Positions 38,024-63,784 of a stretch of DNA of 64,000 nucleotides are shown here, piece after piece (within the stretch, counting starts at the first letter, position 1; the number at the start of each line of letters is the position of its first letter). A program made the position numbers and the translations under genes. Below the pieces are notes generated by a model. That model was not told the origin of the DNA. It worked only from the letters and a program-made list of their open reading frames with translations, and ran no database searches. The DNA is taken from assembly GCA_965204375.1 (NCBI GenBank), contig OZ241986.1, forward strand, positions 4,384,001 through 4,448,000, written 5' to 3'. The stretch comes from Candidatus Latescibacterota bacterium. Lineage in GTDB: Bacteria > Latescibacterota > UBA2968.

Positions 38024-38287
<264 letters not shown>

Positions 38288-38325
38288 ACCGCGCGAACCA
38301 AACGCGGTGAAAGAGAGACATAACA

Positions 38326-38820: not shown

Positions 38821-38935
38821 GTTCGGAAGGGGCAGGTTTCGAGCGGGGTACAACTGCGATAGCAGTTCAACCTGCCCGTACAAAACAAGCGTTCAGCTAA
38901 TAGCTAATTGCTGGTAGCTAACAAAGGATTTCCCA

Positions 38936-39475: not shown

Positions 39476-39492
39476 AAGAAGGCAGGCAAAAC

Positions 39493-41010: not shown

Positions 41011-41028
41011 GAGAACAAAGGACCAGAT

Positions 41029-43265
<2,237 letters not shown>

Positions 43266-43270
43266 CAAAA

Positions 43271-43675
43271 ATGGCCACTTTTCAATTAGACATCGTAACA
43301 CCCGAAAAAACCGTGTACTCTGGCGAAATTGAGCATTTTCAAGCGCCGGGCGTTGACGGCAGCTTTGGCGTATTAGCACGCCACCAGCCCCTGCTGGCCG
43401 CACTCGGCATTGGTCGGGTCGGCTTCCGAGAAGCAGACGGCACCGAGCGCACCCTCGCCATCAGCGGTGGCTTCGCCAATGTATCGGGTGACGGTGCAAC
43501 AATCCTCGCAGAAGCCGCCGAATTTGGCGACGAGATCGACATAGAACGCGCCCGCGCCGCACGAGACCGCGCACAAGAGCGATTGGACAACCGCACGCCA
43601 GACGTAGATGTAGAACGCGCACAAGCTGCACTGGGACGGGCATTTATGCGCCTGCGCGTGTCAGGTGTGGAATAG
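43271..43675 (+). CDS. atpC: F0F1 ATP synthase subunit epsilon
   Basis: IVTPE, G.FGVL..H.P and ID.ERA motifs. Confidence 0.95.
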   Translation: MATFQLDIVTPEKTVYSGEIEHFQAPGVDGSFGVLARHQPLLAALGIGRVGFREADGTERTLAISGGFANVSGDGATILAEAAEFGDEIDIERARAARDRAQERLDNRTPDVDVERAQAALGRAFMRLRVSGVE

Positions 43676-47592: not shown

Positions 47593-47847
47593 ATGGACAC
47601 AGAGACTAATGAAGATTGGGTGGTAATCCGGGTAAGAGATACAGGCACAGGCATTGAGGAAGAACATCTCACCCAGCTATTTGATCCTTTTTTTACAACC
47701 AAAGAAGTGGGTAAAGGAACGGGACTGGGGCTTTCGGTCAGTTATGGTTTGATCCAAGAGCACGGAGGCCAGATTGAGGTGAGCAGTCAACCGGGCAAAG
47801 GTACTGAGTTCCAGATTTATCTTCCCTTTAGACGAATAGACGAATAG
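47593..47847 (+). pseudogene. Truncated sensor histidine kinase (only the C-terminal HATPase_c part)
   Basis: DTGTGI (G1), FDPFFTTK (F) and GTGLGLS (G2) boxes are present; H and N boxes are missing; in-frame TAA at 47584. Confidence 0.8.
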
Positions 47848-48030: not shown

Positions 48031-48147
48031 CCGCCACCCAAAATGTATCCGCAGATGGACGCAGATGGGGAAGGCGCAGCTATGAACTGGCGTGGGACGC
48101 AGCGTAGCTATACACCGTTTTGTACAGATGCACAGCGGAGAAAAAAG

Positions 48148-49536
48148 ATGGACAAAGAGAAAATCCTCATCATAGATGACGAGCCGGATATGTTGAGTGG
48201 TTGCCAAAAGTTTCTGGAGGAAGCGGAATACGCTGCTGTCGTGGCAGAATCAGGTGAGGATGGGATCGCGTTGTTCGAGACAGAAAACCCCGATCTGGTC
48301 ATTGTGGATTTGAAGATGCCCGGGATGGACGGGATGGCTGTGCTTCAAAGCATTATGGCACGCGATAGGGAGGCCGTTGTAATTGTCTTTACAGGATATG
48401 GAACCGTTGAGAGTGCAGTGAAAGCGATCAGAGCAGGCGCGTTCGACTTTGTTCAGAAACCATTTGATGTAGATGCATTTCTAATCGTGATAGAGCGGGC
48501 ACTGAAGTTGCGGCAGGTGAGGATGGAGAACAGTGCTTTGAAACAACTGTTGGAGACGCGGTTTCGGTTCGAGAACATCATCGGGCATAGTAAAGCGATC
48601 ACACAGGTATTTGATCTAATGCGAAAAATCAGCGACATAGATGCCAATGTCCTGATCACAGGAGAGAGCGGAACGGGAAAAGAATTGGTGGCGCAGTGTA
48701 TTCACGCCAATAGCAAGCGCAGCCATAAGCCGTTTGTGCCGCTCAACTGCGGGGGCCTGCCAGAGCCTCTCATTGAAAGTGAGATATTTGGTCATACAAA
48801 GGGGGCATTCACAGATGCGAAACAGAACCGCGTCGGGTTAATAGAACACGCTAAGGGTGGGACATTTTTTCTCGATGAAATCGGGGAATTGCCCATGCAC
48901 CTTCAGGTGAAATTCTTGCGCGTTTTGGAAGACCACAAAATTCGCAGGTTGGGAAGCAATGAGGAGATAGAAATCGACATCCGTCTCATCTCGGCGACCA
49001 ATCAGAATATTGAAGCGTTAATAAAAAAGGGCAGATTTCGAGAAGATTTATTTTATCGACTTAACACCTTTGAGATTCACTTACCGCCTCTCAGAGAACG
49101 GCAGGGAGATATTCAACTTCTTGCCATGCACTTTGTGAATCACTTTGCCGAGACCTCTGAAAAGGCGATTCAAGGTATTTCCACCGAGGCAATGGATGTG
49201 TTGTGCGACTATACCTGGCCTGGCAATGTGCGAGAATTGATGCATGTGATGGAGCGAGCTATTGCCCTATCAGATGCGGATGCGATCCAGATCGAGGATT
49301 TACCTGAAAATTTAATCGCTCAGACCGGAGATACCATTGTTTCTCCACAGACCGATTTGCCTTTCCAAGAAGCCAAAGACGCGGTGGTTGAGAAATTTGA
49401 GCGGACCTTTATTGACCGCCTCCTCAAAGCGCACAACGGCAATGTGTCCCGTGCAGCCAGACAGAATGGAATGAATCGGCACAGGCTGCAACGGTTAATC
49501 TCCAAATATGCAATAGATATATCTACTTACAGATAG
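48148..49536 (+). CDS. Sigma-54-dependent response regulator (NtrC/AtoC family)
   Basis: Receiver domain (IIDDE…DLKMPGMDG), GESGTGKE, GAFTDA, LDEIG, WPGNVREL and a Fis-type HTH. Confidence 0.95.
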   Translation: MDKEKILIIDDEPDMLSGCQKFLEEAEYAAVVAESGEDGIALFETENPDLVIVDLKMPGMDGMAVLQSIMARDREAVVIVFTGYGTVESAVKAIRAGAFDFVQKPFDVDAFLIVIERALKLRQVRMENSALKQLLETRFRFENIIGHSKAITQVFDLMRKISDIDANVLITGESGTGKELVAQCIHANSKRSHKPFVPLNCGGLPEPLIESEIFGHTKGAFTDAKQNRVGLIEHAKGGTFFLDEIGELPMHLQVKFLRVLEDHKIRRLGSNEEIEIDIRLISATNQNIEALIKKGRFREDLFYRLNTFEIHLPPLRERQGDIQLLAMHFVNHFAETSEKAIQGISTEAMDVLCDYTWPGNVRELMHVMERAIALSDADAIQIEDLPENLIAQTGDTIVSPQTDLPFQEAKDAVVEKFERTFIDRLLKAHNGNVSRAARQNGMNRHRLQRLISKYAIDISTYR

Positions 49537-49663: not shown

Positions 49664-49709
49664 AAGTGCCACATTTATGTTCCAAAAGTGGAACATAAAT
49701 GTGGCACTT
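49664..49709. promoter_or_regulatory. Perfect 21-bp inverted repeat, putative upstream activator (enhancer) site
   Basis: AAGTGCCACATTTATGTTCCA-aaag-TGGAACATAAATGTGGCACTT, ~105-150 bp upstream of the -24 box. Confidence 0.7.
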
Positions 49710-49813: not shown

Positions 49814-49829
49814 TGGCACGCATCTTGCT
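49814..49829 (+). promoter_or_regulatory. Sigma-54 (-24/-12) promoter
   Basis: TGGCACG-catc-TTGCT, an exact match to TGGCACG-N4-TTGCW. Confidence 0.85.
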
Positions 49830-49882
49830 CTATAGCAATGTGCGAGACAATAACAACAATCAGATTTTTGATGAGGTGACTT

Positions 49883-50071
49883 ATGACTGCTCAAATAAAA
49901 ATAAAAAGACGCGATCATTTGGCTCATCTCTCCTTGCTCTATGCCATCTGGGGCGATGAAGCCCGATCTGAAGCCTTGCACACGATGATACGTAGAATGA
50001 GCCAGCAAAATAGAGAGATAGACCAGCAATCGTTATTGGCTGGTGAAGTGTGTTTCTATCCGGCAAAATAA
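49883..50071 (+). CDS. Small hypothetical protein, first ORF of the sigma-54 transcript
   Basis: RBS GAGGTGA; 62 aa; lies between the promoter and the rSAM gene. Confidence 0.5.
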   Translation: MTAQIKIKRRDHLAHLSLLYAIWGDEARSEALHTMIRRMSQQNREIDQQSLLAGEVCFYPAK

Positions 50072-50126
50072 GCATATATGGACAACAATAAAAATGTAAT
50101 ATCTACGCAATCCAGGGAGGTTTCTC

Positions 50127-51887
50127 ATGGCAAATTCAGAATTATATCGCGTATCGTCCTATACGATTTGTGTCAAGCTGCCTGAAGATCCAAATTACAC
50201 TTTGCTCGTTCACGGCTATACGGGCGCAATAGATAGAGTGAATAAAGAAGTCGCTCAGATGATCAAAAGCAAGGTTGTTCTCTCGGAAGATATGTTTGAT
50301 CAACTGCCTTGTTCAAAAGGGACGATTCATACTTTAATGAAGCGTGGCTATCTGACCAGTCGTTCTCCTGTGGAAGAACGAGAATACGTGCATAGCATGG
50401 CGAATTTTCTCCACCATACCTCAAGTCGAGGTGCCGCATCTTTCCTTTTCTTAGTGGCCTACGATTGCAACTTCCGCTGTCCCTATTGTTATGAAAATGA
50501 CATTTCATCTCATGGAAAGGGGTGGTCAAAACAGGTCTTTACAAAGGAATTGGTTGACCGCGCATATCAGGCTATGCTTGAAATCCAACCGAACAGAGCC
50601 ATACATAGCAAAAATATCACTTTGTATGGTGGAGAGCCTTTGTTAAAAAAAAATAAAGAGATTGTGCAGTATATCGTAGATGAAGGTTTGAAACACGGTT
50701 ACACTTTTTCTGCGATTACAAATGGATATGATCTTCACCATTTTACGGATTTATTAGGTCCCCAAAAAATCAGACGTCTCCAGATTACCTTAGATGGCGA
50801 AGAAGAAAATCACAATCTCAAGCGTCCACATTATCGTGCAGGAGATAGTTTTGATGCGATCATGAAAAATGTGGCACTTGCTCTGTCGCTTGATGTGCAA
50901 GTTTCAATGCGAATCAATACAGATTACGACAATGTGGATATTTTACCTGCATTATTTGATTTGTTCAAAGATAGAGGATTTACAGAGTATCCGAAATTTT
51001 CGGCCTATTCTGCATTGGTGCATCAGGTTGAAGAGAGCCTGTCCTGTAGTTCTACCATGTCAGGAAAAAAGACGCCAGGCAATTATGGCCAGACGACACC
51101 TCTGCTTTCTATTGAATCACCAGCATCAGATTTTGAACCCTCTGAGTCTGTTGCCTCTGTCATATCCTTTAAGGAGAGTAAGACTCAGAAACAAAAAACT
51201 TTTGATCATGAAGAATTTGAACTCCAAGCACAGTTGCACACTGCTTCTGAAATGCTCATAGATGAAGAACAATATATCAATGTGGAACAAGAAGAAAAAA
51301 TTTTCTCGAACTACCAAAACGGCACACGCCCAGTTGGTCTTCATGAACTCTCTCAAGAGATGGAGTCAAACCATCTCGAGAATCGAAAAATTCCTGTTAT
51401 GCCGAGAAGAGAGTTTACACGCAAATATTATCAATTTGCTAAAGAAAATCCTGACTTGATGCATCAAATTTCTTGCCAAGACTATGGCATTAGACAGAGT
51501 TTCAAACAGGCCCTTGATGGTAAAGGTCTGTTGAGTTTTAAACCCATCTTCTGCGGGGCGCAGAACCGTATGTTGATCCTCGATCCTTATGGAGATCTCT
51601 ATACATGTTGGGAAATGGTGGGTTTAGATCGGTATAAAGTTGGTAGCTATATCAATCAAGTTGAATTCAATGATGAACGTTTATCAGAATGGTATGATCG
51701 GAATATTTCCAATGTACCGTCTTGCAGTAAATGCAAATATGCATTCTTTTGTGGTGGAGGGTGTGCTGCACATGCATTTATAAAAAATAATGGAAATGTC
51801 AACACATCCTATTGTGATGAGTATCCCAGGATTTTCCATACAGTTGTGCCTGAGATATTTGAGGAGCAAAAACAAAAAACCTTATAG
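50127..51887 (+). CDS. Radical SAM/SPASM-domain peptide maturase
   Basis: CNFRCPYC, YGGEP and TNG motifs; SPASM C..G.LYTC…CSKCKYAFFCGGGC…C; N-terminal RRE-like region; RBS GGGAGG. Confidence 0.92.
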   Translation: MANSELYRVSSYTICVKLPEDPNYTLLVHGYTGAIDRVNKEVAQMIKSKVVLSEDMFDQLPCSKGTIHTLMKRGYLTSRSPVEEREYVHSMANFLHHTSSRGAASFLFLVAYDCNFRCPYCYENDISSHGKGWSKQVFTKELVDRAYQAMLEIQPNRAIHSKNITLYGGEPLLKKNKEIVQYIVDEGLKHGYTFSAITNGYDLHHFTDLLGPQKIRRLQITLDGEEENHNLKRPHYRAGDSFDAIMKNVALALSLDVQVSMRINTDYDNVDILPALFDLFKDRGFTEYPKFSAYSALVHQVEESLSCSSTMSGKKTPGNYGQTTPLLSIESPASDFEPSESVASVISFKESKTQKQKTFDHEEFELQAQLHTASEMLIDEEQYINVEQEEKIFSNYQNGTRPVGLHELSQEMESNHLENRKIPVMPRREFTRKYYQFAKENPDLMHQISCQDYGIRQSFKQALDGKGLLSFKPIFCGAQNRMLILDPYGDLYTCWEMVGLDRYKVGSYINQVEFNDERLSEWYDRNISNVPSCSKCKYAFFCGGGCAAHAFIKNNGNVNTSYCDEYPRIFHTVVPEIFEEQKQKTL

Positions 51888-51986
51888 TGTATATAAACTC
51901 TTAAGAGAAAGGAGACATTATATTTTGATGCTGATATAAACGAAGATGTCATCTCTGTTTAATTTTCAATCAAGGAGGGTAGTATC

Positions 51987-52235
51987 ATGTCTTCCCCAGT
52001 GTCTTCAGAAGCCGATCTCAAAGCGCACATAGCGTCATACCCTGAACTTTACGAGGATCTGGCTGTTGATGTTCTTGAAGAACGTTTGGAAATGTGGTGT
52101 GTTTGCGATAGTTTGGAGTGCATTTGTGATGAGTTTGAGTGCATTTGTGATGAGTTTGAGTGTATTTGTGATGATCTTTGTATTGATTGTTGGACTGATT
52201 TTTGTGTGATTGATCTGTGTGATATTGATTCTTAG
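51987..52235 (+). CDS. Cys/Asp/Glu-rich RiPP precursor peptide (putative)
   Basis: RBS AAGGAGGG; 36-aa leader ending LEERLEM; 46-aa core with 12 Cys and 15 D/E; directly after the rSAM gene. Confidence 0.85.
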   Translation: MSSPVSSEADLKAHIASYPELYEDLAVDVLEERLEMWCVCDSLECICDEFECICDEFECICDDLCIDCWTDFCVIDLCDIDS

Positions 52236-52634
52236 AAGATCTTTAGAACCCCAACTGTCTTTACACAATGAATCTTCGTGGTCAAGGCCACTCATATTGT
52301 TTTGCAAAAATATAGGTGGTCTCGATCATTCTTAATACTTTTTTGTCGCGCTTGGGGATTCACCAAAGAATTTTTAGAATTGCGATAAAACGAATAACTT
52401 ATACTAATCGTATGAATTAACTTTGCATGACATTTTAGGGTATTTTCGAGAACGATGGCTTGACTGTATTTTGATACGCAGAATAGAATAGGCATGCAAA
52501 TCTGATTACAAATGCAAGATTTCTATTTCTGATTAGTATTACTTATTTAATGATTATATTGCTCGCCAAAGCGTGCTACAACTCGTCTGGCTTCTCTAAT
52601 CATTGATCGCGTAAAATATTCAGGAGGCATACTG

Positions 52635-53528
52635 ATGGTCATTCGCATTTCAAACTTGGCAAAAACATATCGACGCGGTGATACGCCAGTACTAGACGAT
52701 GTCACTTTGAGCATCCCACACGGCACATTTGGTCTGTTGGGACCCAATGGCGCGGGAAAAACTACGCTAATCAAAATCCTGTCGACCCAAATGGACGCAT
52801 CGAGCGGCAACGTTACCATGGATGATTTCGATTTGGTCCAAAACCGCGCAGAAATTCGGCATCGCATTGGATATTTGCCTCAGCATTTTGGCACCTATCC
52901 CCAACTCACCGCTTGGGAATTTCTCGATTATATGGGCATTTTGGGCGGTATCCACAACAGGACAGAGCGTCTAAATCGCGTAGAGCAAGCTCTAAACGAA
53001 GTCGGGTTATACGATGCACGCAAGTGGCACACGGGCACGTTTTCCGGTGGCATGGTGCGGCGTCTTGGCATTGCACAGGCCATTTTGACCGATCCAGAGT
53101 TTCTCATTGTCGATGAACCCACCGTGGGGCTTGATCCGGAAGAACGCATCCGGTTTCGAAGTATTTTGGGACGCTTGAGCAGCGATCGCGCCATTTTGAT
53201 CTCCACGCATATTGTAGGTGATATTTCGAGCACTTGCAAGGATATCGCAATTTTGAATCGTGGACAACTGGTCTTTCGCGGCTCCCCATCAGACCTGATT
53301 TCAAAGGCGGATGGCAAGACGTGGCAAATACAGGTTGATGAGCCCCACTTTGAAAAGCTGTCGCGTGTGTTTCATGTAGTGACGGTCAATGTTGAAGGGG
53401 ATCGCATGAGTGTGCGAATGGTGGGCGATGGCGATCCTCTCGCTGATGCCGAAGCAGTCTCGCCCAATCTGGAAGATGCGTATCTCTATTTTATGAGTGG
53501 CGACATTACTGATGAAATCGCATCGTGA
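52635..53528 (+). CDS. ABC transporter ATP-binding protein
   Basis: GPNGAGKTT, FSGGM, VDEPT.GLDP and STH motifs. Confidence 0.95.
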   Translation: MVIRISNLAKTYRRGDTPVLDDVTLSIPHGTFGLLGPNGAGKTTLIKILSTQMDASSGNVTMDDFDLVQNRAEIRHRIGYLPQHFGTYPQLTAWEFLDYMGILGGIHNRTERLNRVEQALNEVGLYDARKWHTGTFSGGMVRRLGIAQAILTDPEFLIVDEPTVGLDPEERIRFRSILGRLSSDRAILISTHIVGDISSTCKDIAILNRGQLVFRGSPSDLISKADGKTWQIQVDEPHFEKLSRVFHVVTVNVEGDRMSVRMVGDGDPLADAEAVSPNLEDAYLYFMSGDITDEIAS

Positions 53529-53620
53529 AGATAAAAAAGAAGAAACTTTCTTATTGATCACCAGCCTTGGGCGGTGTAGGTGGTCCTTTTAAGTCTTGTC
53601 CTTGGAAAAGGAGTAATACC

Positions 53621-56600
53621 ATGTTATCTGCTCTTCATAACATACTCGGTGTTGCACGTTACGAGTGCAAAATGCTTTTGAGAACCACAAAATTTCGCAT
53701 TTTGGGTGGATTGACAGTGTGTATTTACGTTTGCTTGGGCATTAATTTTGCCTTGGGATTTTGGAATAAAGCACACAAAGGACTTGAAGGATACGAGTCT
53801 TATGTTCTGTTTCTCGTATACACTACCTTTCAGGCCCTTGTCATTCCATTTCTTGCAGGATCTTTTAGAACTGCTGACGAAAATGCCCATATTTATGAAG
53901 TGGTTGCTGGGCGTCCTATTTCGACAGCAGCACTCGTTGTAGGTAAGTATTTGGGCACTGTCAGTGCGTTTTTCTTTTTTAGTCTTAGTGTTCTGATTTT
54001 GGCCTTGAGCATCCAAGCAGCAGAGATCAGCATGGCGGATAATCCATTTACTATAGAACCTTATCTGTTATACCTTTTGCTCTTGAACTTTCCCACTCTG
54101 ATTTTTTTATCTTCTCTTACATTTTTTCTGGGGGTCTTGCTACGTCGGCCAATAGCTGCTGCCTTGATTGTAACTACATATTCGTTCGCTGCCATATTAT
54201 TCTTCTCAGGTAGTCAATATTTCAACGTGGGATTTGACTTTCTTGGTTTAGATGACTACATGGGTTATTCGGATCTGATGGGTATAGGGAATATTACACA
54301 AGTGGGTTTGCAACGCCTGTTTTACGTTTTGCTCGGCATTGGCTTTTTGGGATTGGCGATTGATCGATATCCCCGTCTTGCACACTCCATGAACGCGCAA
54401 TGGTTTGGTCGCGGATGCGCTCTAACCGGTTTTGGATTGACCACAGGTCTTTACTTTTTTTTTCATGCGGATGTGCAAAACCGGCAGACATATCGCCAGT
54501 CATTGCTCGCGCAACAGGAAGCCGTTGCACATATTCCCGTAACAGAAATCACTCATTATGACTTGGCAGTGACACTTCTGGGCAAAGATCTGCTCTCAGC
54601 CTCTGGCAAGATCATCTTAAAAAATAATCTTGAAGTACCTCTTGATACACTGATTCTTTCACTCAATCCCGGACTGAAAATTCAAAGCCTGATGCAGGAC
54701 AATGGTAGCAACATTGAATGGGATCGGACGGGAAGTGTGATCCGCGTCATGCCAGATGCTCCTTTGCTATCGGATCAAGAACTCGGTCTAAAACTAAATT
54801 ATGCAGGGGATATTGACACAGATGGTTTTGATCTCAAACGAGAAAAAGGCAAATCTAGGTTTTTGCCAGGGCGGATGGGCATGGGATTTTTAACGGCGTG
54901 GATTCGCGATAATTCCATCTTTTTGCCTCCACGCAGCCGATGGTATCCGGTAACGGGCGTTGATTATGGCTACAAGCATGCACGTCCGGCCTCTTTTTCA
55001 ACAGCAAACTTGCACATCACCTTCCCGCAAGGTCTCGAAATCATTACCCAAGGGCAGATAGGCAAGACCGATACCCTCGGCACACAAGTGATCCGCCAAT
55101 GGGTTGTTGAAAATCCCGTACCCGTCCTGTCTCTGAACGCGGGTGTGTATTGCGTGTATCGTGCCACCATTCACGACATCGAATGTGCCCTTTACGTGCA
55201 TCCATCACATTTGCGCTTGATCCGCTTTTTTGAAGATGCTGAAGAAGAGGTTGTGCGTGCGCTTGGGCAAATCGTGGATATGATGGAACAGGAATCAGGT
55301 ATGAAATATCCCTACCCCAATCTCTCTTTAGTGGAAATTCCGTTCCATATTCAGTGGTATTACGAAGGCTGGGAAGAAAAGGGGGGCCTGACGCTACCGG
55401 GCGTGTTGATGATTGAAGAAAAGGTACTTGCAAGGCAGAGTTTTACCCACATTTATAAGCCTTATCAACAGCAATTGAGTGTCAACCGAGAACCTAAAAA
55501 TCTAAAAAAAGACCTTCTGGTACGCGCTGTTTTAGAAACCTTTTTTGCAGAAGAAAGTGCGAATAGTGGGCTTTTTCGTAGCCCTGTTTTTCAACTCTGG
55601 GCTTATGACAAGAATTTTGTGGGCGATCATTATGCTCTGCTCAAAAAGGGCATGCCCCTATACCTTCAGAGTAATTTGAGAAACGATATGGCATCTGCTT
55701 TTTTTTCACGCCGCCGACAGCGTAGTGGGGTTAGCAGAGGGTCAAGCAAGGATTGGAATAGATTGACCGCCAAGATGCAACGGAAGTCGTTTGCCGATTT
55801 AGACCCCGAACAAGAGGCTAAACTCTATCGCCAAGTGCTTGACGTAAAGGGGCCGGGACTCTTTGAGATGATGGCGTCCTTTTTAGGTGAAGAAACCTTC
55901 CGCACCCTCATATCTGACATCAACCAGAATTATAAATATAAGGACATTGATTTTTCGACCTTTGAACGTGCCGCTGTGGGCTATACAGAAGATGAAGATC
56001 GCTTGAGACTACAGCGCTTGGTCAAAGATTGGATATTTAGCACAGAAATCCCAGGCTATACCCTGACAAGTGTAAAAGCCTTAAAGATAGACGATGGCTC
56101 TGGGATATTGGCCTATCAATTGATTGTGCGGATCAAGAACAGCGAACCCGGTAGGGGCTATGTGCAAATTACTGCCTTAAGCGAAAATGATGAGGCGATA
56201 AAAGGCGTCGAGATTGAAAGTGGACAGGAAATTGAAGTTTCGATGGTGCTGTGGGAGCAGCCCTTGCGGGTGATCATTGAACCCTTTTTTGCACGCAACC
56301 GCCAACCGCTCATATCCCCTGTGCGTGTTCCTGAACAGGTTACAAAGGGAGCTCCCATTGCCTATCTTAAAGATGTGACAGGAGAGGAGGATATGACTCA
56401 TGCGGATACGGATCCTATTGAAATTATTGTAGATAATGATGATAAAGGATTTTCAATGCCCATTCACCGCGTGACACGCTTCTCGCGTCCCGGCCTCAAA
56501 GGGGGTAACTGGCGCGAGCGTAGCCTGCCAGTAGCTTATGGACGATATGCAAAAAACTATCGGCAGAAGAAACCGGGCGATGGCGCACAACCTGCTGTGT

Positions 56601-56935
56601 GGACCGCACAAATTCCCAGAGATGGTGAGTTTGATGTGAGCTTCTATTTTCCCGACCAGGCAACAGCTAAGCGCGAGGGTATTGCACCAGCCTTTACCCT
56701 TACTGTTTTTCACGCGGGTAAGGTCGATACCCTTAAAATGGAGCGCGACCTTATGAAAGCGGGCTGGAATCACCTAGGGCGATACAAATTTGTCAATAGG
56801 GAAGAGGCTGTGGTCGAATTGTCTGACCGCGCAGAGGGGGTCCTATATGCTGATGCTGTGCGCTGGCGTTTTGTGGATAAACTCATTCCTCAACAGGCTT
56901 TCTTCGATCCACAAAACCCCGGTGCCCATAGGTAA
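53621..56935 (+). CDS. ABC-2 permease fused to an M1-aminopeptidase-like domain and a C-terminal golvesin-like beta domain
   Basis: N-terminal TM segments (GKYLG); HYDL, WYP, YPY..L..VE and V.KG..LF.M M1-like segments; IIVDNDD…GW..LG.Y.F…ADAVRW tail. Confidence 0.75.
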   Translation: MLSALHNILGVARYECKMLLRTTKFRILGGLTVCIYVCLGINFALGFWNKAHKGLEGYESYVLFLVYTTFQALVIPFLAGSFRTADENAHIYEVVAGRPISTAALVVGKYLGTVSAFFFFSLSVLILALSIQAAEISMADNPFTIEPYLLYLLLLNFPTLIFLSSLTFFLGVLLRRPIAAALIVTTYSFAAILFFSGSQYFNVGFDFLGLDDYMGYSDLMGIGNITQVGLQRLFYVLLGIGFLGLAIDRYPRLAHSMNAQWFGRGCALTGFGLTTGLYFFFHADVQNRQTYRQSLLAQQEAVAHIPVTEITHYDLAVTLLGKDLLSASGKIILKNNLEVPLDTLILSLNPGLKIQSLMQDNGSNIEWDRTGSVIRVMPDAPLLSDQELGLKLNYAGDIDTDGFDLKREKGKSRFLPGRMGMGFLTAWIRDNSIFLPPRSRWYPVTGVDYGYKHARPASFSTANLHITFPQGLEIITQGQIGKTDTLGTQVIRQWVVENPVPVLSLNAGVYCVYRATIHDIECALYVHPSHLRLIRFFEDAEEEVVRALGQIVDMMEQESGMKYPYPNLSLVEIPFHIQWYYEGWEEKGGLTLPGVLMIEEKVLARQSFTHIYKPYQQQLSVNREPKNLKKDLLVRAVLETFFAEESANSGLFRSPVFQLWAYDKNFVGDHYALLKKGMPLYLQSNLRNDMASAFFSRRRQRSGVSRGSSKDWNRLTAKMQRKSFADLDPEQEAKLYRQVLDVKGPGLFEMMASFLGEETFRTLISDINQNYKYKDIDFSTFERAAVGYTEDEDRLRLQRLVKDWIFSTEIPGYTLTSVKALKIDDGSGILAYQLIVRIKNSEPGRGYVQITALSENDEAIKGVEIESGQEIEVSMVLWEQPLRVIIEPFFARNRQPLISPVRVPEQVTKGAPIAYLKDVTGEEDMTHADTDPIEIIVDNDDKGFSMPIHRVTRFSRPGLKGGNWRERSLPVAYGRYAKNYRQKKPGDGAQPAVWTAQIPRDGEFDVSFYFPDQATAKREGIAPAFTLTVFHAGKVDTLKMERDLMKAGWNHLGRYKFVNREEAVVELSDRAEGVLYADAVRWRFVDKLIPQQAFFDPQNPGAHR

Positions 56936-57030
56936 TGAACTAGCCGCGTTTATGTTTGACCGAGGCAGACATGTCCCCAAAGAAACCTCATTTACCTTTT
57001 ATTTTTAAATTCATTGTGAAAGGTATAGTT

Positions 57031-59550
57031 ATGAAAGTCCTACATGTTTTGAATTATTCACTATGGTCTCGACAGGCAGGCTATACCATAAGAAGTAAAT
57101 ATATCTTCGATACCCAAAGCAAAATAGGGCTTGAACCCATCGTAGCAACCCGCTTCAAAGACACTCATCTTATAGACAGTAAATTTCTTGTTGAAGAGGA
57201 GTATCTGGATGGGGTATTGTACTTAAACGACATGACCCAAGCATCGCTTGATCAACATTTCCATGACCTTAGTTTTTGTCAGCCCCGACATTCTACTGCA
57301 TTACATCGTGAAGGATTGCAGCGGCAGTTCAAGAATCATATTTCTCGTGTTGTCGAAGTTCACAGACCGGAAGTGATCCATGTGGCCTCTCCTGCCCAAA
57401 ATGCATTAATATCGGCTGAAGTTGGACACAAATACAACCTGCCTGTGATCTATGAAGTGCGCGGATTATGGCACGAAACGGACGTGGTCGCTGGAACACT
57501 TGATACTTCTTCAAAAGCATATCAGCACCGACACTTTTTGTTTGTAGAGGCTATGAAACGAGCTGATCTGGTCGTCACATTAGCTGAAACAATGAAAGAG
57601 GAATTTATCCGAGAAGGGATTCCTGAAGATAAAATTTTCATTGTTCCCAATGGCGTAGATACATCAAAATTTACACCGAGGCCATACCCAACCCATTTGG
57701 CGAGAAGATTAGGGCTTGGTTCAGGTCATATAACCATCGGACATATTGGTTCAGTCAGAAAACTCGAAGGCCTCCGTTGGCTATTCAAAGCGGCGAAAAT
57801 GCTCCTATCCCATCATCCTCGTGTTAAAATTCTCATTGTTGGTGATGGAGATGAGTTGGAACCACTCCAAAGGCTTGCAAAAGAGCTAAGTTTAGAATCG
57901 GTTGTACACTTTACAGGACAGGTACCACACGAAGATATTCTCGACTATTATGCCTTAATTGATATTTTCGCGATACCCAGAGTTCGAAGTCGCGTGACGG
58001 AATTGGTGACTCCTATTAAGCCGTATGAAGCCATGGCAATGGGAAAAGCCGTCATTGTCAGCGATGTGGCTGCGCTTCGTGAAATTATAGATGACGGCAC
58101 GACAGGGCGTATATGCAATGCGGATGATCCAGAGGATCTCGCAGAGAAATGCTCGGCTTTAATCCAGGATACACAACTTAGAGCGGAACTTGGGCATCAG
58201 GCAAGACATTGGATTGCAGAACACAGAGATTGGCAGCAAGTAGTGGCAAATTATGAACCCATATATAAGCATGCGATCCAGGAAAAACACCATCGGGCAT
58301 CCAAGCCACTATCAAAATCCCGCCGGAAGCGTATCATCCTTTATAGCCAGCATCTCGTTGGCATGGGCCATCACTTTCGCAACCTTCAGATTGCTCGCGC
58401 ATTAGCAAGAAATCACGATGTTTACTTTGTGAATGGGGGACGCCCAATTCCCGATTTCAGAATGCCAGAATCCATTCGTTTAATTCAATTAATGCCTATT
58501 TCACTGACCCCAGAGGGTTTAGCGTCCGAAGATGGAGATCAAGGTATCCAGGAAACTTTCGAGAAACGGCTGATTGAATTGACCAAGGCAGTTACAGATA
58601 TCCAGCCAGACATGATTATGATTGAACATTTTCCCTTTGGTCGATGGAAGCTACGCCCGGAATTACAATGCCTGTTGGGAATGGTCAAATCGAAGTTTCC
58701 GGATATTCATATCATCTGTTCTTTGCGCGACATCCCGCTACGGGCAAAAACGGCTGATATTTTTAAGCCTCATTCGGGTATCAATGTAGAAAGACCAGAC
58801 CCCCTGATCCCTCAAGACCAGGACCTATATAAAGCCAAGAGGTATTATGAGGAAGTTTGTCCGACATTAAATGCTTACTTTGATGCGTTGCTTATTCATG
58901 GAGATCCGAGCGTGACCCAACTAAAAGAATATTTCCCCTGGGTAGAAGATATTGTCATACCGATTGTATATACTGGATATGTATCTGAAAAGCCGAATGG
59001 CGTGATAGATGGAAAACCCGATGAGAGCATAGACAATTTTGTACTGGTTAGCGCAGGTGGTGGTGTTGATGCCTACGAGCTTGTTGTGCCTTGTATCAAA
59101 GCTTGGGAATTGCTGCATAAACAGAGAAAGGTTGATGGTTGGAAAATGGTCATATTTCCGGGCCCGTTTATCAATGATGATCAATACGAGGCATTGGAAA
59201 GGATGTGTGAAATGGGGCCGTTCTATATGAGGTGCTATACACCTGATTTTCTTCAATGGATGCAGGCGGCTAATTTTGTAATTAGCCGGGCAGGTTACAA
59301 TACTTGTGTCAACATTTTGGAAACCGGTACGACTGCACTACTTGTACCGAGTTTACTATCTGAAGATCAAAATATCAGAGCAAGTAGGCTGGCTGATCTG
59401 GGACTGATAAAGAAAATTGATCCGGTTGATCTGACGCCTGATAGCGTCGCAGACAGTATTATGCAGAATTTATCTCGTCAAAAATCTCTTACCCACGAGA
59501 TTAAATTAAATGGTACAGAACAGACGCTTTCATTTATTGATAGTCTTTAG
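57031..59550 (+). CDS. Two-domain glycosyltransferase (GT4 + GT28-like C-terminal)
   Basis: GY.IRS, YEVRG.W, PNGVD and P.KPYEAMA.G (GT4); YSQH..G.GH…VSAGGG…SRAGYNT (second GT-B domain). Confidence 0.85.
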   Translation: MKVLHVLNYSLWSRQAGYTIRSKYIFDTQSKIGLEPIVATRFKDTHLIDSKFLVEEEYLDGVLYLNDMTQASLDQHFHDLSFCQPRHSTALHREGLQRQFKNHISRVVEVHRPEVIHVASPAQNALISAEVGHKYNLPVIYEVRGLWHETDVVAGTLDTSSKAYQHRHFLFVEAMKRADLVVTLAETMKEEFIREGIPEDKIFIVPNGVDTSKFTPRPYPTHLARRLGLGSGHITIGHIGSVRKLEGLRWLFKAAKMLLSHHPRVKILIVGDGDELEPLQRLAKELSLESVVHFTGQVPHEDILDYYALIDIFAIPRVRSRVTELVTPIKPYEAMAMGKAVIVSDVAALREIIDDGTTGRICNADDPEDLAEKCSALIQDTQLRAELGHQARHWIAEHRDWQQVVANYEPIYKHAIQEKHHRASKPLSKSRRKRIILYSQHLVGMGHHFRNLQIARALARNHDVYFVNGGRPIPDFRMPESIRLIQLMPISLTPEGLASEDGDQGIQETFEKRLIELTKAVTDIQPDMIMIEHFPFGRWKLRPELQCLLGMVKSKFPDIHIICSLRDIPLRAKTADIFKPHSGINVERPDPLIPQDQDLYKAKRYYEEVCPTLNAYFDALLIHGDPSVTQLKEYFPWVEDIVIPIVYTGYVSEKPNGVIDGKPDESIDNFVLVSAGGGVDAYELVVPCIKAWELLHKQRKVDGWKMVIFPGPFINDDQYEALERMCEMGPFYMRCYTPDFLQWMQAANFVISRAGYNTCVNILETGTTALLVPSLLSEDQNIRASRLADLGLIKKIDPVDLTPDSVADSIMQNLSRQKSLTHEIKLNGTEQTLSFIDSL

Positions 59551-59687
59551 TTCTGTAATCTTTTGGGGAATACTACGCTCCTCAAGGAAACATGCCGGAG
59601 TAACTATAGGGCCTATGAATGCTGGTCCAATGTCCCCGCAGTGGTTTACGAATTAATCCACAAACCGTTTTCAATAAGGATATTAAC

Positions 59688-60695
59688 ATGAATAAACATT
59701 TACCATCAGATCCCTTTGAATCTCTTGAGGATGAAATTTCTTCACTGAACTTTGGTCTTCAGGATGATCTTTCAATCAAAAAATCCGAAGTCGAATTTTA
59801 TCAATTCATGTCGCAGATTTGTGAAGAATATAATCTGGAGGCAGCGTTACAACAGTATCCCGTATTTTTAGCCACTGATTTACATACTTCCTTTACATCG
59901 CAGTTCTCGGAGGTATTTGTCTTAGACGAAGATACGCATCAGAAATTGTATTTTGTCAATCGAGCACTGTATATCTATACGTCGTATATGGATAGTGTTT
60001 TGGATGATCGAAAGACTCTTAAAGCAGATGCCTATTTTTTAGCTTCTCTTTTGAGAGATCATGCATTTGGTCTTCTCAATGACTTATTTCCCCCATGTTC
60101 GGATTTTTGGGCCTTTGCCAAAAAGTATCAGCGTTGCGCCATTGCTGCAACACTACAAGAAAGAATAAAATGGAATAATCCCACATCTTATTCATTGGAT
60201 GAGGCATTTAACATTGCCTCTGGCAAAGCCGCCACAGCTCAGATGGTGACAACGGCTTTAGCCTGTTTGTCCAATTCTTCCGAGTTGATCCCTCCCTTTG
60301 AAAAATCTTTAGATGCCTTTTTTATGGGCTTACAATTTCATAATGATCTTAAAAATTGGCGATCAGACTTTATCGCTGGAAGATATTCGTATCTTTTGAA
60401 TCAAATTATTGAAAGAAAGGAACTTCACGAAAAATTAGAATCCGTTACCATGGAAGAACTGGCGCGTATGATTTACTTTACAGGGTTGGTAGAAGAAATT
60501 CTCGATCATTCAATAGATTGCTACAGGCAAGCCTTGTCGTATGTTCATCAATTACCCTGCACGGACTGGAAGATTGCGATTGACCGTAGCATATCTGAAA
60601 CGTCTGTTTTGCTCCGCAACTTGCAAAAACATAAGGAGCAAGAAATTGATCGGGTAAGTAAACTTGTAATGGAAAAGAAAAACAAAAGCCCTTAG
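59688..60695 (+). CDS. Class I isoprenoid-synthase-fold protein (ComQ-like putative peptide prenyltransferase)
   Basis: DSVLDD (first Asp-rich-like motif), GKAA and G.Q..NDL.NW..D (pseudo second Asp-rich motif); predicted all-helical. Confidence 0.6.
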   Translation: MNKHLPSDPFESLEDEISSLNFGLQDDLSIKKSEVEFYQFMSQICEEYNLEAALQQYPVFLATDLHTSFTSQFSEVFVLDEDTHQKLYFVNRALYIYTSYMDSVLDDRKTLKADAYFLASLLRDHAFGLLNDLFPPCSDFWAFAKKYQRCAIAATLQERIKWNNPTSYSLDEAFNIASGKAATAQMVTTALACLSNSSELIPPFEKSLDAFFMGLQFHNDLKNWRSDFIAGRYSYLLNQIIERKELHEKLESVTMEELARMIYFTGLVEEILDHSIDCYRQALSYVHQLPCTDWKIAIDRSISETSVLLRNLQKHKEQEIDRVSKLVMEKKNKSP

Positions 60696-60715
60696 AGGCG
60701 AGATAGGAATACACC

Positions 60716-62023
60716 ATGCAAGAATCCTTACCAGACCCGATTAAGTTGGTTCCCGAAATTTCTATGTATAAATTCGATACCTCTTTGGTAGAGAAGAGTT
60801 ATGTTTTATGCATCGGTACGAAACGGTTTGAAATAAGCGAAGGTATCTATCAACTCATAGAGTTGATAGATGGAAAAAGAACACTGTCTGAAATTGCAAG
60901 CGAATACTCTGCTATCAGGAATAAGACATACTCTGCCAAAGACATTGAGGCAATTATTCATTCATTTCTCGTGCCTTATGGAATCATCGCAAACACCACC
61001 TCAGATGACGATACTCAAACAAGTAATTCGTATTTTTATTTTCAATACCCTTTTATTCGAGTGAATGCGGTTCATGCCGTCAGTAATTTTCTCAAGATTC
61101 TCTATCATCCAAAAATTCTGATTTTCTTTATTCTATTCTCTTTTGTCTTTTTGTTGTATTTCTGTTTTTTTGTGTTCTCAGTCATAGATTTTACTATTTA
61201 TGATATTTCGTTTCGAGATGCGATTCTAATACTGATGATTTTTGGAATTTTAGGAATTTTTCACGAGTTAGGTCATTCTTCAGCTTGTGCTCATTATGGC
61301 GCGTCACCTGGCGAGATTGGGGTAGGCTTGTATCTGCGCTTTCCCGTTCTTTACTCTGATGTAACAGATGCTTGGAAGCTACCGAGAACGCAACGCGCGA
61401 TGGTGGATTTCGGCGGCATATATTTTCAGCTTATTTTTGTTCCTATACTCTTCATCTTGTATCTAACGACATCAAGTAGCGTATTTTTGTATGTCATTCT
61501 TTTTAACTACGGATCAGCACTGTTTAATTTGAATCCGATTTTCCGATTTGATGGGTATTGGCTTTTTTCAGATATAGCAGGTGTGCCAAATCTCAGGAAA
61601 AGATCTTTAGAAATTCTAAAATACTTTGCCAAGCGTTTCATTTTAAGGCAGAAAGAGATTGTCGAACCTGTCTTTCTGCGCATCAGTGGGAAAATAAAAT
61701 CGTTTCTTTGTGTGTATGGAATTGTCAGTACGAGCTTCTTCATTTTGTTCTTTTACAAGATTTTTTTTCTTTTTCCCGATTTGGTTTTAAATTATCCCGG
61801 TCTCGTATATAAGACTTTTAGCGAGATAATAAGCGGCTTTGCCGTTGGAGATTGGCAAACTGTTGGGCGTGCCCTTTCCAGCTTCTTTTTTCCTTCCCTG
61901 ATCATTTTGATGTTAAGTTTTGCTACATATCGAATGATGAAAAGGATAATGAGATTGACAAAGACCGTAGTGCGATGGGGAATACAAGTGACACGACACT
62001 TAAAAACACCAGGAATACACTGA
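60716..62023 (+). CDS. PqqD/RRE-like domain fused to an M50-family membrane zinc peptidase
   Basis: Y..I.LIDG.RTL.EI (winged HTH); HELGH; NLNPIFRFDGY (NxxPxxxxDG); several TM segments. Confidence 0.82.
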   Translation: MQESLPDPIKLVPEISMYKFDTSLVEKSYVLCIGTKRFEISEGIYQLIELIDGKRTLSEIASEYSAIRNKTYSAKDIEAIIHSFLVPYGIIANTTSDDDTQTSNSYFYFQYPFIRVNAVHAVSNFLKILYHPKILIFFILFSFVFLLYFCFFVFSVIDFTIYDISFRDAILILMIFGILGIFHELGHSSACAHYGASPGEIGVGLYLRFPVLYSDVTDAWKLPRTQRAMVDFGGIYFQLIFVPILFILYLTTSSSVFLYVILFNYGSALFNLNPIFRFDGYWLFSDIAGVPNLRKRSLEILKYFAKRFILRQKEIVEPVFLRISGKIKSFLCVYGIVSTSFFILFFYKIFFLFPDLVLNYPGLVYKTFSEIISGFAVGDWQTVGRALSSFFFPSLIILMLSFATYRMMKRIMRLTKTVVRWGIQVTRHLKTPGIH

Positions 62024-62033
62024 GGAGGTAAGT

Positions 62034-63224
62034 ATGAATATCTGCTTGATTACCTACCAGTATCCACCATACCCAGGAGGAGTTGGAAGTGCAATGTATC
62101 GAATTGCCAAAAATTTGGCAAAACAGGGTGTCAATATCCACATTATCGCGCCAGGTCCTCATCAATTAAGGGATAAAATCTCACCTGTCATAGAAGACGG
62201 TGTGACAGTACATCGAACATTTTCAATATTATCAGATTACCATGCTGATCCGCATAGTTTACAAGTACTTGGCGAATATATTGTAAAACTCCATCAAAAA
62301 CAGAGTTTTGACTTGATCCATGCAGCTTTTCTTATGCCACCTGGGTTCTTAGGTGCAATCGTGGCTACAGAGATTGAGTGTCCCCTTATCGTCAGTATTA
62401 GGGGCAATGATTGGGAGGTTTTGCGATATAGCATCCAACACTTGGCGAATCTAAGGTGGGTATTAGAAAGAGCCGATTATGTAACATCAGTATCTCATGA
62501 ACTCATGGAAAAGATGCGCCGAATGGTAAGAATCAAAGCAGGAAAAGTCCTTTCCAATGTGTTTGATGCGTCAATATTTGATGCACGTTTACTTTCAGAA
62601 ATAACAGAAGAGCATAATAATAGACTGCAGGTACTTACGGAAACCTTTTTTCGGATGAAATCAGAAGGTAGATCAGTCATCGGAACTGCTGGATTTCTGC
62701 GGCCTAAAAAGGGGTTTCACATTCTTTTACGAGCATTTGGAGGGATTGTTAAAGCTTATCCCAATACTTGTTTGCTCGTTGTAGGACAGTTTGCACAAGA
62801 ATCCTACAAAAGAGATATGTTGCAGCAGATCAGTGACCTGGGTATCAAAAGGCAAGTTTTATTTACAGGTTATATTCCACACCGAGAAGTATTAGCGTGG
62901 ATGAGAGAGATGGATATTTTTGCATTCCCTTCGCTTCATGAAGGTTCACCAAATGCACTGTTGGAGGCGATGGGTTTTGGACTTCCTATCGTGGCTTCCC
63001 AAATCGGTGGTATTATCGATATAGTTGAAGATAATAGGGATTGCCTTATTGTTCCCGGCGGTGACGCCGGTAGGTTATCCCAAAAATTGCAACTATTACT
63101 TGAAGATACAGAACTCAGAAAAAGACTTGGTAAGGCCGCAAAACATAAAGTGGAAAACCAATTTTCTCCAACTCAAGAAACAGAACAGTGGCTTGACATC
63201 TATCACCGTATATTGAATAACTGA
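62034..63224 (+). CDS. Glycosyltransferase family 4
   Basis: YPP..GG, KKG and PS..EG.P..LLEAM..G.P motifs. Confidence 0.9.
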   Translation: MNICLITYQYPPYPGGVGSAMYRIAKNLAKQGVNIHIIAPGPHQLRDKISPVIEDGVTVHRTFSILSDYHADPHSLQVLGEYIVKLHQKQSFDLIHAAFLMPPGFLGAIVATEIECPLIVSIRGNDWEVLRYSIQHLANLRWVLERADYVTSVSHELMEKMRRMVRIKAGKVLSNVFDASIFDARLLSEITEEHNNRLQVLTETFFRMKSEGRSVIGTAGFLRPKKGFHILLRAFGGIVKAYPNTCLLVVGQFAQESYKRDMLQQISDLGIKRQVLFTGYIPHREVLAWMREMDIFAFPSLHEGSPNALLEAMGFGLPIVASQIGGIIDIVEDNRDCLIVPGGDAGRLSQKLQLLLEDTELRKRLGKAAKHKVENQFSPTQETEQWLDIYHRILNN

Positions 63225-63472: not shown

Positions 63473-63784
63473 ATGGGCAAAAAAAGATCATATCCAGCAG
63501 CATTTCGCCAGCAAATGGTCGCGCTGGTCAGATCGGGTCGTAGTGCCAACGATTTGGCCAAAGAGTTTGAACCCACCGCCCAGACGATCAGTGCCTGGGT
63601 GCGTCAAGCAGATCGCGATGAAGGCCGTCGAGACGATGGGTTGACCAGTCGTGAGCGAGTAGAACTTCAAAGGCTTCGTAGAGAGAATAAACGCTTACGA
63701 CAAGAGCGCGAAATCCTTGCAGAAGCCGCGGCCTGGTTCGCAGCGGAGACCGATGCGATACCCAAAAAATCTTCAGATATATAA
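63473..63784 (+). CDS. IS3-family transposase OrfA
   Basis: Y..AF…V.L…GRS…LA.EF…W..Q…EL.RLRREN.RL..EREIL..A pattern; A6 run near the end (possible -1 frameshift site). Confidence 0.9.
   Translation: MGKKRSYPAAFRQQMVALVRSGRSANDLAKEFEPTAQTISAWVRQADRDEGRRDDGLTSRERVELQRLRRENKRLRQEREILAEAAAWFAAETDAIPKKSSDI

Follow-up and report, generated by a model that had tools for sequence, protein, structure and literature searches.

The stretch of DNA analysed here, hereafter the window, comprises 64,000 nucleotides (bases 4384001-4448000) of the single-contig, 6.34-Mb genome of a Candidatus Latescibacterota bacterium (GCA_965204375.1), and carries at 49883-63224 a gene cluster which almost certainly specifies a peptide that is made on ribosomes and modified after translation (RiPP). 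Checking the open reading frames (ORFs) against their positions placed nine of them in this interval, every one on the + strand, encoding in order a small protein, a radical S-adenosylmethionine (rSAM)/SPASM maturase, a Cys-rich acidic precursor peptide, an ATP-binding cassette (ABC) ATPase, an ABC-2 permease fusion, a two-domain glycosyltransferase (GT), a protein resembling the trans-type synthases of isoprenyl diphosphates (trans-IDS; hereafter the prenyl-like protein), an intramembrane metalloprotease and a GT of the GT4 family. The GC content of the cluster is 42.4% as compared to 50.8% for the genome, the AT-richer stretch starting near 43.7 kb, immediately past the ATP synthase operon; nine co-oriented genes in AT-richer DNA are also what a first-pass annotation, made from the sequence alone, had described. 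Gene identities were assigned by Pfam and NCBIfam searches, scores below the cut-off of a model being stated as such, and for the maturase, the precursor, the ABC ATPase and both GTs the Pfam, NCBIfam and motif results agreed with the identities proposed at first. Strong ribosome-binding sites were found upstream of the rSAM, precursor (AAGGAGGG), ABC and GT4 genes. The arrangement is not due to chance: this set of genes was found again in a paralogous locus and in three further genomes.

The precursor gene (51987-52235) encodes an 82-amino-acid (aa) peptide containing 12 Cys, 13 Asp and 11 Glu, which consists of a conserved 36-aa leader ending in RLEM and a 46-aa core ending in CDIDS. This core holds the 12 Cys, seven C-x-x-D/N units and two Trp, and a 21-bp sequence repeated 3.5 times in tandem (52102-52174, + strand) codes for its three ECICDEF units. 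Altogether 26 distinct precursors were collected, sharing a near-invariant leader of the form ...SYPELYEDLxVDxLExRLEM. When 25 of them were compared (P0179, whose end is atypical, was omitted), the mean pairwise identity reached 84% over the last 30 leader residues and 29% over the cores, a contrast that bears out the RiPP precursor recognized at first. The cores are composed of 18% Cys and 16.5% Asp, and their residues are not placed at random: Asp or Asn stands at Cys+3 in 111 of 191 cases, as compared to 39±5 in shuffled cores (maximum 55 in 2000 shuffles), and Asp, Asn, Glu, Gln or His in 140 of 191. No other Cys-to-D/N offset was enriched when the 26 cores were compared with their shuffles, and the inverse orientation of the motif (N-x-x-C) was discarded, D/N being found at Cys-3 in only 41 of 171 cases, without enrichment. 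Such a fixed spacing between Cys and acceptor is the imprint expected of a donor/acceptor cross-link chemistry. Among the Cys-Cys spacings, five is the most frequent (55/170), the last residue is Ser or Thr in 25 of the 26 precursors, and C-x-x-[DNH]-[ST] forms the C-terminal end of 21. A large protein database contained 22 relatives of the precursor, while an alignment search of the JGI metagenome contigs returned no precursor relative.

Other loci of the same kind were sought in 168 genomes of the phylum, including 20 sister genomes of the genus. The window's own genome (G000) harbors a second locus, cluster 2 (L006; G000:C1 ~3590300-3599561, - strand, 40.0% GC), whose maturase, prenyl-like protein, protease and GT4 are 84%, 75%, 80% and 80% identical to those of the window, and in which the same leader precedes a very different core, made of an Asp run with only three Cys. 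Cluster 2 is devoid of the ABC/permease/double-GT block; its genes specify instead an outer-membrane protein with DUF5686, a methyltransferase, a secreted protein of 250 aa, an S41 peptidase and an epimerase; the SAM methyltransferase, present in this locus only, sits between the protease and GT4 genes. Three further intact loci and one remnant were recovered from the genome collection. The locus of G080 (L009 and L013) is fully syntenic with the window. That of G087 (L008) comprises the rSAM, the precursor, the 250-aa protein, the S41 peptidase, a GT1-like enzyme, the prenyl-like gene, the protease and the GT4, and that of G091 (L010) a DUF5686 protein, a permease, the rSAM, two precursors, Sel1 proteins, a GT4, the 250-aa protein and the S41 peptidase. 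The remnant (L012, in G090, 10001-10711) is a decayed copy: what is left of its maturase (residues 159-255, 52% identical) passes straight into a piece of the ABC ATPase (residues 129-297, 85% identical). In L008 (twice), L010 and L006, the maturase has as a neighbor a gene pair made of a 250-aa protein and, after it, an S41 peptidase; the 250-aa protein has a signal-peptide-like start and belongs to no family, and this pair is the sole protease candidate in G091, which is without the HExxH protease.

Thus the prenyl-like gene, the protease and the GT4 accompany the rSAM and precursor in four of the five intact loci (window, cluster 2, L008 and L009+L013), the three genes being separated by 10-20 nt; this co-occurrence had been put forward as a check on the cluster. 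The ABC/permease/double-GT block is found with the rSAM and precursor in two of the five. Within the genus, close maturase homologues were detected in 4/20 sister genomes, the prenyl-like gene in 2/20 and neither in 16/20, and all genomes with the prenyl-like gene also possess the rSAM. Across the 168 genomes, close copies of the prenyl-like gene were confined to G000, G080 and G087, all of which possess the rSAM. In one metagenome-assembled genome the locus tags of the prenyl-like gene and of a precursor follow each other directly; in five cases, this one and four others, the two lie on contigs of equal size, which suggests that they are linked. So far, the cluster family has been seen only in one Latescibacterota genus and a few metagenome contigs.

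The maturase (50127-51887, 586 aa) displays a Cx3Cx2C motif at residue 114 and seven Cys at its SPASM end (positions 476, 494, 533, 536, 542, 546 and 563), and it matched Radical_SAM as well as the SPASM model TIGR04085, the latter with 60 bits for a cut-off of 27. Its best NCBIfam maturase matches, all under cut-off, were CefB (129 bits), PapB (119 bits, more exactly 118.7), the geopeptide maturase (118), TIGR04463 (113) and SCIFF (93.5), and four of the top seven (CefB, PapB, TIGR04463 and SCIFF) are maturases of Cys-rich or Cys-patterned peptides. The best match in the PDB was 5wgg (E 2e-18), which we take to be the thioether-forming CteB. By NCBIfam the enzyme is therefore nearest to the thioether-forming rSAM/SPASM families, in line with the type initially assigned to it. 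According to its description (PMC9413430), PapB joins the Cys sulfur to the Asp beta-carbon in six CX3D motifs, tolerates spacings of 0-6, and needs a thiol and a carboxylate. That the peptide contains Cys-to-D/N thioethers appears fairly probable to us.

Between its rSAM and SPASM parts, the maturase contains an insert of about 170 aa (residues ~290-470; window 50994-51536), which is acidic and of low complexity and is retained in a 585-aa paralogue, 84% identical over the full length; related maturase models are ~330-480 positions long. Pfam gave nothing usable on this insert or on the N-terminus of the maturase, and the rSAM and SPASM halves matched the NCBIfam maturase models as two separate stretches. 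These traits, together with rSAM family scores that are all under cut-off, would fit an enzyme with another chemistry, such as epimerization or the formation of C-C or C-O cross-links, the Cys and Asp residues of the product then serving as metal ligands or forming disulfides in a metal-binding peptide. The few-Cys cores point in the same direction, since cluster 2 has three Cys and P0192 two, Asp runs dominating both. So does the layout of precursor, rSAM/SPASM, membrane HExxH protease and ABC transporter, which recalls the epipeptide system YydFGHIJ, whose rSAM is an epimerase; the YydH/LiaK model matched the protease with 48 bits (E 1e-12), for a cut-off of 225, and the extra tailoring genes have no counterpart in Yyd. 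However, no YydG-type model was present among the best 25 rSAM matches of the maturase, the top seven families include PapB and the SCIFF thioether maturase among the four that serve Cys-rich or Cys-patterned peptides, and the Cys-to-D/N spacing lies 14 standard deviations above the shuffles. We consequently hold another rSAM chemistry to be quite unlikely.

The metalloprotease (60716-62023, 435 aa) is of the site-2-protease type and begins with a soluble domain. Its residues 35-357 align to positions 26-346 of the 379 of the NCBIfam daptide_HExxH profile (E 2e-36; 126 bits, under the cut-off of 300), the motifs HELGH at 183 and NLNPIFRFDG at 271 are present, and hydrophobic segments span 125-405. 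The daptide peptidase is described as a RiPP recognition element (RRE) fused N-terminally to a site-2 protease (bioRxiv 10.1101/2023.03.08.531785). Nothing usable was obtained from Pfam on the N-terminus of our protein, and its sole match in the PDB was a PqqD domain (5sxy, residues 19-87, E 0.17); because this match is weak, an RRE at the N-terminus is considered likely rather than established. The RRE-M50 peptidase of the first-pass annotation thus stands as an intramembrane HExxH protease, a near full-length homologue of an RRE-fused peptidase, but with an RRE detected at E 0.17 only. By analogy with the daptide enzyme, the protein is likely an RRE-guided leader peptidase, and there is a good probability that it removes the leader.

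The prenyl-like protein was called as a 358-aa ORF (59619-60695), but its homologues begin at residue 24, so a length of 335 aa (59688-60695) was retained. Taken alone, it had no Pfam or NCBIfam match. A profile of its close homologues retrieved 807 relatives at E<=0.001, and a 52-sequence family alignment matched the trans-prenyl diphosphate synthases of the PDB (3oyr, E 7e-9), with the D-x3-D of the family aligning on the first aspartate-rich motif (FARM) and its Q-x2-DDLxD on the second (SARM). The AlphaFold2 model computed with this alignment had a predicted local distance difference test (pLDDT) of 89; an earlier model derived from 14 close homologues (pLDDT 52.9) was not used. All top Foldseek matches listed for it were trans-prenyl synthases or prenyltransferase domains of bifunctional terpene synthases, with template modeling (TM) scores of 0.50-0.66, the best ones (4jyx, 4lob, 3oyr and farnesyl diphosphate synthase) being at 0.6-0.66. 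Profile and model therefore concur on the isoprenoid-synthase fold that had been proposed. A search of a sequence-cluster atlas returned unnamed clusters and one cluster named 'class 1 isoprenoid biosynthesis enzyme', polyprenyl_synt being carried by 21% of its members. There were 22 close homologues in a large protein database, and no relative was recovered from the JGI metagenome contigs with a close alignment.

A squalene-hopene-cyclase-like domain forms the C-terminal part of many relatives with a length of about 680 aa, and the peptide prenyltransferase/cyclase ChrPC has the same prenyl plus cyclase-like layout according to a 2026 review (PMC13290415). The trans-IDS-like peptide prenyltransferases given in that review are ComQ, PalQ and the P domain of ChrPC, and all characterized ones are stated to act on Trp. 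The ComQ-type enzyme postulated initially agrees with the fold, but prenylation of Trp as in ComX cannot be a general rule and was excluded as such, because four of the nine cores linked to a prenyl-like gene (cluster 2, L008, P0193 and P0181) are without Trp, five of these nine links resting solely on contigs of equal size in two lists. When the complex of the prenyl-like protein with the precursor was predicted, the score of 0.55, for 0.11 in the best of three controls, lent weak support to an association; the runs shared at least 52% of the contacts, with a partner pLDDT of at least 51, and the mark set for such scores is reached by 116 of 157 solved complexes and by 2 of 215 mismatched pairs. 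On the basis of its modeled fold, we propose the protein as a candidate peptide prenyltransferase. Whether the peptide is prenylated, we judge evenly balanced.

Residues 1-30 of the prenyl-like protein (window 59688-59780; DPFESLEDEISSLNFGLQDD) are nearly invariant in 14 homologues and are predicted to be disordered (pLDDT <50); they may serve to dock a partner enzyme. A distant homologue (E 5e-21) was noticed in another family of the phylum (L014; G021:C153, 7576-11403), in a genome where no maturase match was found at E<=1e-20. It adjoins a cyclic-nucleotide-binding protein and a radical SAM gene, and a 74-aa ORF nearby has a weak match, under cut-off, to a Frankia RiPP peptide family (E 2e-5), so that the wider prenyl-like family may also be linked to RiPPs.

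The active-site motifs of the window copy deserve attention. The family consensus reads D-x3-D-(D/E) and Q-x2-D-D-L-x-D; the window copy has D102-x3-D106 and Q216 followed by N219-D-L-K-N223. The first motif is thus D-x3-D and not DDxxD, and the second is N/S-D-x-x-N in the window copy and four close relatives (P0002, P0003, P0005 and P0006), as opposed to D-D-x-x-D in at least 90% of the 52 aligned members. Such changes could denote a weakened or repurposed protein, acting as a binding or scaffold partner or using a different donor. We find this distinctly improbable: N-D-L-x-N-x3-D still provides a metal-binding triad, as the NSE/DTE motif does in class I terpene synthases, D102, D106, D220 and D227 are invariant across the family, and sister genomes have retained the gene at 87-89% identity.

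The ABC ATPase (52635-53528) is of the DrrA/GldA type (ABC_tran, E 7e-31; TIGR01188, 188 bits, under cut-off) and has a paralogue, 81% identical, in an efflux context elsewhere in the genome. The adjacent permease fusion (53567-56935, likely start 53621, 1122 aa) has about six hydrophobic segments at its N-terminus, with a match to ABC2_membrane_3 under the cut-off, followed by a large extracytoplasmic part with Golvesin_C at its end (E 4e-15). It had been described as a permease-M1-like fusion, of which the ABC-2 permease holds. The M1 part, by contrast, is sub-threshold (Peptidase_M1, E 0.0011, 19 bits for a cut-off of 27.7; M1 matches in the PDB at E 0.03-0.3 only), and a motif search of the 1122 aa found neither HExxH nor GxMEN; with the zinc-site and GxMEN motifs absent, an active M1 peptidase was ruled out. 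Export of the peptide by this ABC system has, in our opinion, an even chance.

The double GT (56956-59550, likely start 57031, 864 aa) associates an N-terminal GT4 domain (Glycos_transf_1, Glyco_transf_4; TIGR04063, 325 bits for a cut-off of 442) with a C-terminal GT28/GT1-like domain (Glyco_tran_28_C, residues 760-850). The last gene of the cluster encodes a 396-aa GT4 (62034-63224; Glycos_transf_1, E 3e-34, and Glyco_trans_4 families), closest to the BshA and TuaC families, which is ~80-85% identical in cluster 2, L008 and L013 and always stands beside the protease or one gene off. Sugar-nucleotide genes are found nearby. In G080, a UDP-GlcNAc 2-epimerase and a UDP-sugar dehydrogenase are located directly 3' of the GT4; the same two genes, 91-92% identical, lie in G000 ~3.5 kb beyond the GT4, outside the window. 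In between stands an IS3-family element (transposase orfA at 63473-63784, + strand, HTH_Tnp_1, E 5e-10; orfB from near 63814). Because the synteny with G080 runs from the GT4 to the epimerase and the dehydrogenase, this IS3 is an insertion which, judged from this comparison, splits the locus from its sugar-nucleotide genes, and its role as a cluster boundary was ruled out. The interval from the IS3 to the sugar-nucleotide genes further holds a 271-aa ORF (G000:C1:4448843-4449658) that has no counterpart in the syntenic part of G080 and may have arrived with the insertion. Another sugar gene, an NAD-dependent epimerase (45129-46154, + strand; Epimerase, E 3e-54), is situated in the same AT-richer stretch, has homologues beside L009 and cluster 2, and may supply sugar. 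Glycosylation of the peptide is conceivable, at slightly less than even chances.

These sugar-related genes leave room for a cluster made of two unrelated halves, in which a minimal RiPP unit (rSAM, precursor and protease) would lie amid cell-envelope glycoconjugate genes, the GT4s, the ABC-2 exporter and the prenyl-like protein building and exporting a lipid-linked glycan instead of decorating the peptide. The N-domain of the double GT is indeed nearest to the PEP-CTERM/XrtA exopolysaccharide GT (the 325-bit match) and the last GT4 to BshA and TuaC. Pairs of ABC-2 permease and ATPase are typical glycan exporters, and that of the window has a paralogue outside any RiPP context; moreover, all loci are surrounded by sugar-nucleotide genes and outer-membrane proteins, and the ABC/permease/double-GT block is present in only two of the five intact loci. 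Against such a division, only the short gaps given above separate the prenyl-like, RRE-protease and GT4 genes, and this tight block accompanies the rSAM and precursor through loci of otherwise different content. In addition, the only three phylum genomes with close prenyl-like copies also carry the rSAM, and glycan lipid carriers normally come from cis-prenyltransferases, unlike the trans-IDS fold found here. Overall, we see the two-halves arrangement as rather unlikely.

Taken together, these data lead us to favor, by a little over even chances, a sigma-54-controlled RiPP operon of ranthipeptide-like type with prenyl and sugar tailoring, of which every chemical step is inferred. The 82-aa precursor would be recognized through its conserved leader, and the rSAM/SPASM enzyme would join the Cys sulfur to a side-chain carbon of the Asp or Asn (or Glu, Gln or His) located three residues downstream. 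This would generate small C-x-x-D/N rings, up to seven in the window peptide, by a chemistry of the ranthipeptide (PapB/CteB) type. The trans-IDS-like protein would then add an isoprenoid and the GT4 enzymes a sugar, probably uronic or N-acetylated, from the products of the neighboring genes. Finally, the RRE-fused intramembrane HExxH protease would cut off the leader at the membrane, and the ABC-2 system would export the product.

Several points weigh against this pathway. The scores of the maturase are far under every curated cut-off (CefB, 129 for 600; PapB, 119 for 340; SCIFF, 93.5 for 425), so its chemistry is extrapolated, and the acceptor position is often Asn, Gln or His and not a carboxylate. 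The prenyl-like protein of the window has Asn at the nearly invariant Asp positions 219 and 223, some of the cores linked to such proteins are those without Trp, and its complex score with the precursor is weak, since at scores up to 0.60 the mark is reached by 18 of the 157 solved complexes and by both mismatched pairs. G091, which is 98% complete in one contig, has the rSAM and two precursors, while queries with the prenyl-like profile and the protease found no match in it. The best family matches of the GTs are exopolysaccharide or thiol-biosynthesis GT4s, the paralogue of the ABC/permease pair lies in a resistance-nodulation-division (RND) efflux context, and the ABC/permease/double-GT block is an exchangeable accessory. 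The recurring neighbors are envelope proteins (DUF5686 outer-membrane protein, S41 peptidase and 250-aa secreted protein).

The systems most similar to this cluster are the ranthipeptides (freyrasin, PapA/PapB; SCIFF, CteA/CteB), which share with it an rSAM/SPASM maturase, a leader-dependent, Cys-rich and acidic precursor, and Cys and Asp at fixed spacing, PapB being the second-best family and 5wgg the best solved relative of the maturase. The cluster differs by its C-x2-D/N spacing, as opposed to the C-x3-D of PapA, by the frequent Asn, Gln and His at the acceptor position, by a maturase far under the family cut-offs with an insert of ~170 aa, and by the addition of a prenyl-synthase-like enzyme, GT4s and an RRE-site-2 protease. 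The Cys-every-fifth system CefA/CefB (NF038108/NF038107) provides the best maturase family, and shows the same commonest Cys-Cys spacing of five; 4 of 25 precursors weakly match CefA (best E 0.0016), but the other 21 have no CefA match, the maturase stays well below the CefB cut-off, and the leader is unrelated as far as tested. Our literature search found neither the term 'Cys-every-fifth' nor a paper on the CefA/CefB system.

With ComQ, PalQ and the P domain of ChrPC, the prenyl-like protein is likened by fold, motifs and description: it has the same fold, family motifs that align on FARM and SARM, a RiPP operon and cyclase-fused relatives, but is without Pfam or NCBIfam match, has D-x3-D as FARM and, in the window copy, N-D-x-x-N as second motif, and is linked in four of nine cases to Trp-free cores, Trp being the sole acceptor known for that enzyme group. 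The daptide peptidases DapP/MpaP resemble the protease by a near full-length profile match and by the HExxH and NxxPxxxxDG motifs; the daptide leader end ELExMEAP is close to LExRLEM of the cluster, and both precursor types have a conserved C-terminal hydroxy amino acid. The cluster protease, however, scores under the daptide cut-off, its precursors are Cys/Asp-rich and not aliphatic, and Pfam and NCBIfam detected no oxidative decarboxylase, aminotransferase, DUF-RRE partner or methyltransferase among the nine genes, the set which in daptides works on a C-terminal Thr. Glycocins use GT2 enzymes, unlike the GT4 and GT28_C types of the cluster.

Neither the family models nor the literature provided a match to a characterized family, as presumed at first; the literature search did not find this gene combination or precursor family, and the primary ChrPC study, which it did not cover, may bear on novelty. 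The 'new class' claimed for the cluster is nevertheless premature, the evidence allowing a new variant. What is new here is the precursor signature and the set of tailoring enzymes, whereas a RiPP with an rSAM/SPASM maturase is of a known kind. A bolder and rather improbable proposal can be made: the product would be the first rSAM-cross-linked peptide also isoprenylated and glycosylated, with the prenyl group on a non-Trp site (for example a Cys thiol, Tyr, or the C-terminal C-x-x-D/N-S/T). Because a prenyl enzyme, an intramembrane HExxH protease and, in cluster 2, a methyltransferase lie side by side, such a pathway could be the bacterial equivalent, for a secreted natural product, of the CaaX-type processing of C-termini in eukaryotes.

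Upstream of the cluster, an NtrC-type sigma-54 enhancer-binding response regulator (48043-49536, + strand; Response_reg, Sigma54_activat and HTH_8) is the likely regulator of the operon, the same gene being found upstream of the cluster in L008 and L009. It is preceded by an 84-aa histidine-kinase remnant (47593-47847, + strand) with HATPase_c only (Pfam, E 9e-23), which shares 83% identity with the C-terminal end of the complete kinase in a paralogous pair located downstream. Of the two boundaries initially drawn, the kinase remnant is thus present but separated from the cluster by an intact sigma-54 regulator, and the IS3 is an insertion and not an edge. A sigma-54 promoter, TGGCAC-N5-TTGC (TGGCACGCATCTTGC, 49814-49828, + strand), is the sole exact match to this motif in the window; L009 and L010 also have the motif, 5' of their rSAM gene, and L013 has it 5' of its second copy of the small ORF. 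A perfect palindrome whose arms are 20 bp long (49664-49709, + strand), centered ~130 bp upstream of the -24/-12 promoter, may be the enhancer site of the regulator or else the terminator of its gene.

The small ORF (49883-50071, 62 aa, no match in Pfam or NCBIfam) is 76% identical in L009, and no copy was detected by tblastn in the vicinity of the rSAM in cluster 2, L008 or L010. Together with the promoter region, it is duplicated with the second kinase/regulator pair downstream of the cluster in G000 and G080, the copy after the second regulator being clear in L013 and weak in G000. Because of this duplication alongside the regulator module, the small ORF probably belongs, from its sequence context, to a regulatory/promoter module and not to the peptide pathway; it was rejected as a pathway gene, and its original inclusion in the cluster was abandoned. 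Three more stretches of G000:C1 (4462095-4462259, 5164056-5164165 and 3608448-3608532) are 76-85% identical to the promoter region of the cluster, the first with its own TGGCAC-N5-TTGC at 4462186, which suggests that G000 carries a family of sigma-54 promoter cassettes.

Elsewhere in the window, a restriction endonuclease of TdeIII type (E 2e-86) occurs together with a DNA methylase, and both are adjoined by a protein with a SocA/Panacea antitoxin domain (30406-33743), and a 679-aa protein with DUF6785 and DUF6784 (34536-36575) lies just upstream of the F1Fo ATP synthase operon (36833-43675).

Latescibacterota have not been brought into culture, and hardly anything is known about their chemistry. 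The cluster family described here represents a compact, regulated RiPP pathway with a clear precursor signature (leader motif, C-x-x-D/N units and C-terminal Ser/Thr), open to heterologous expression. Thioether rSAM enzymes are already used as peptide-stapling tools, and this family would possibly bring them a new ring size and a broader acceptor range. It also contains a stand-alone member of the little-explored trans-IDS-like prenyltransferase group, whose natural substrates are often without Trp, and its five loci show how tailoring and export modules are naturally mixed and matched around one maturase, an instance of RiPP cluster diversification. If the inferred chemistry is true, a lipo-glycopeptide type would be added to the RiPPs; if it is not, the cluster would still define a new precursor/maturase family.

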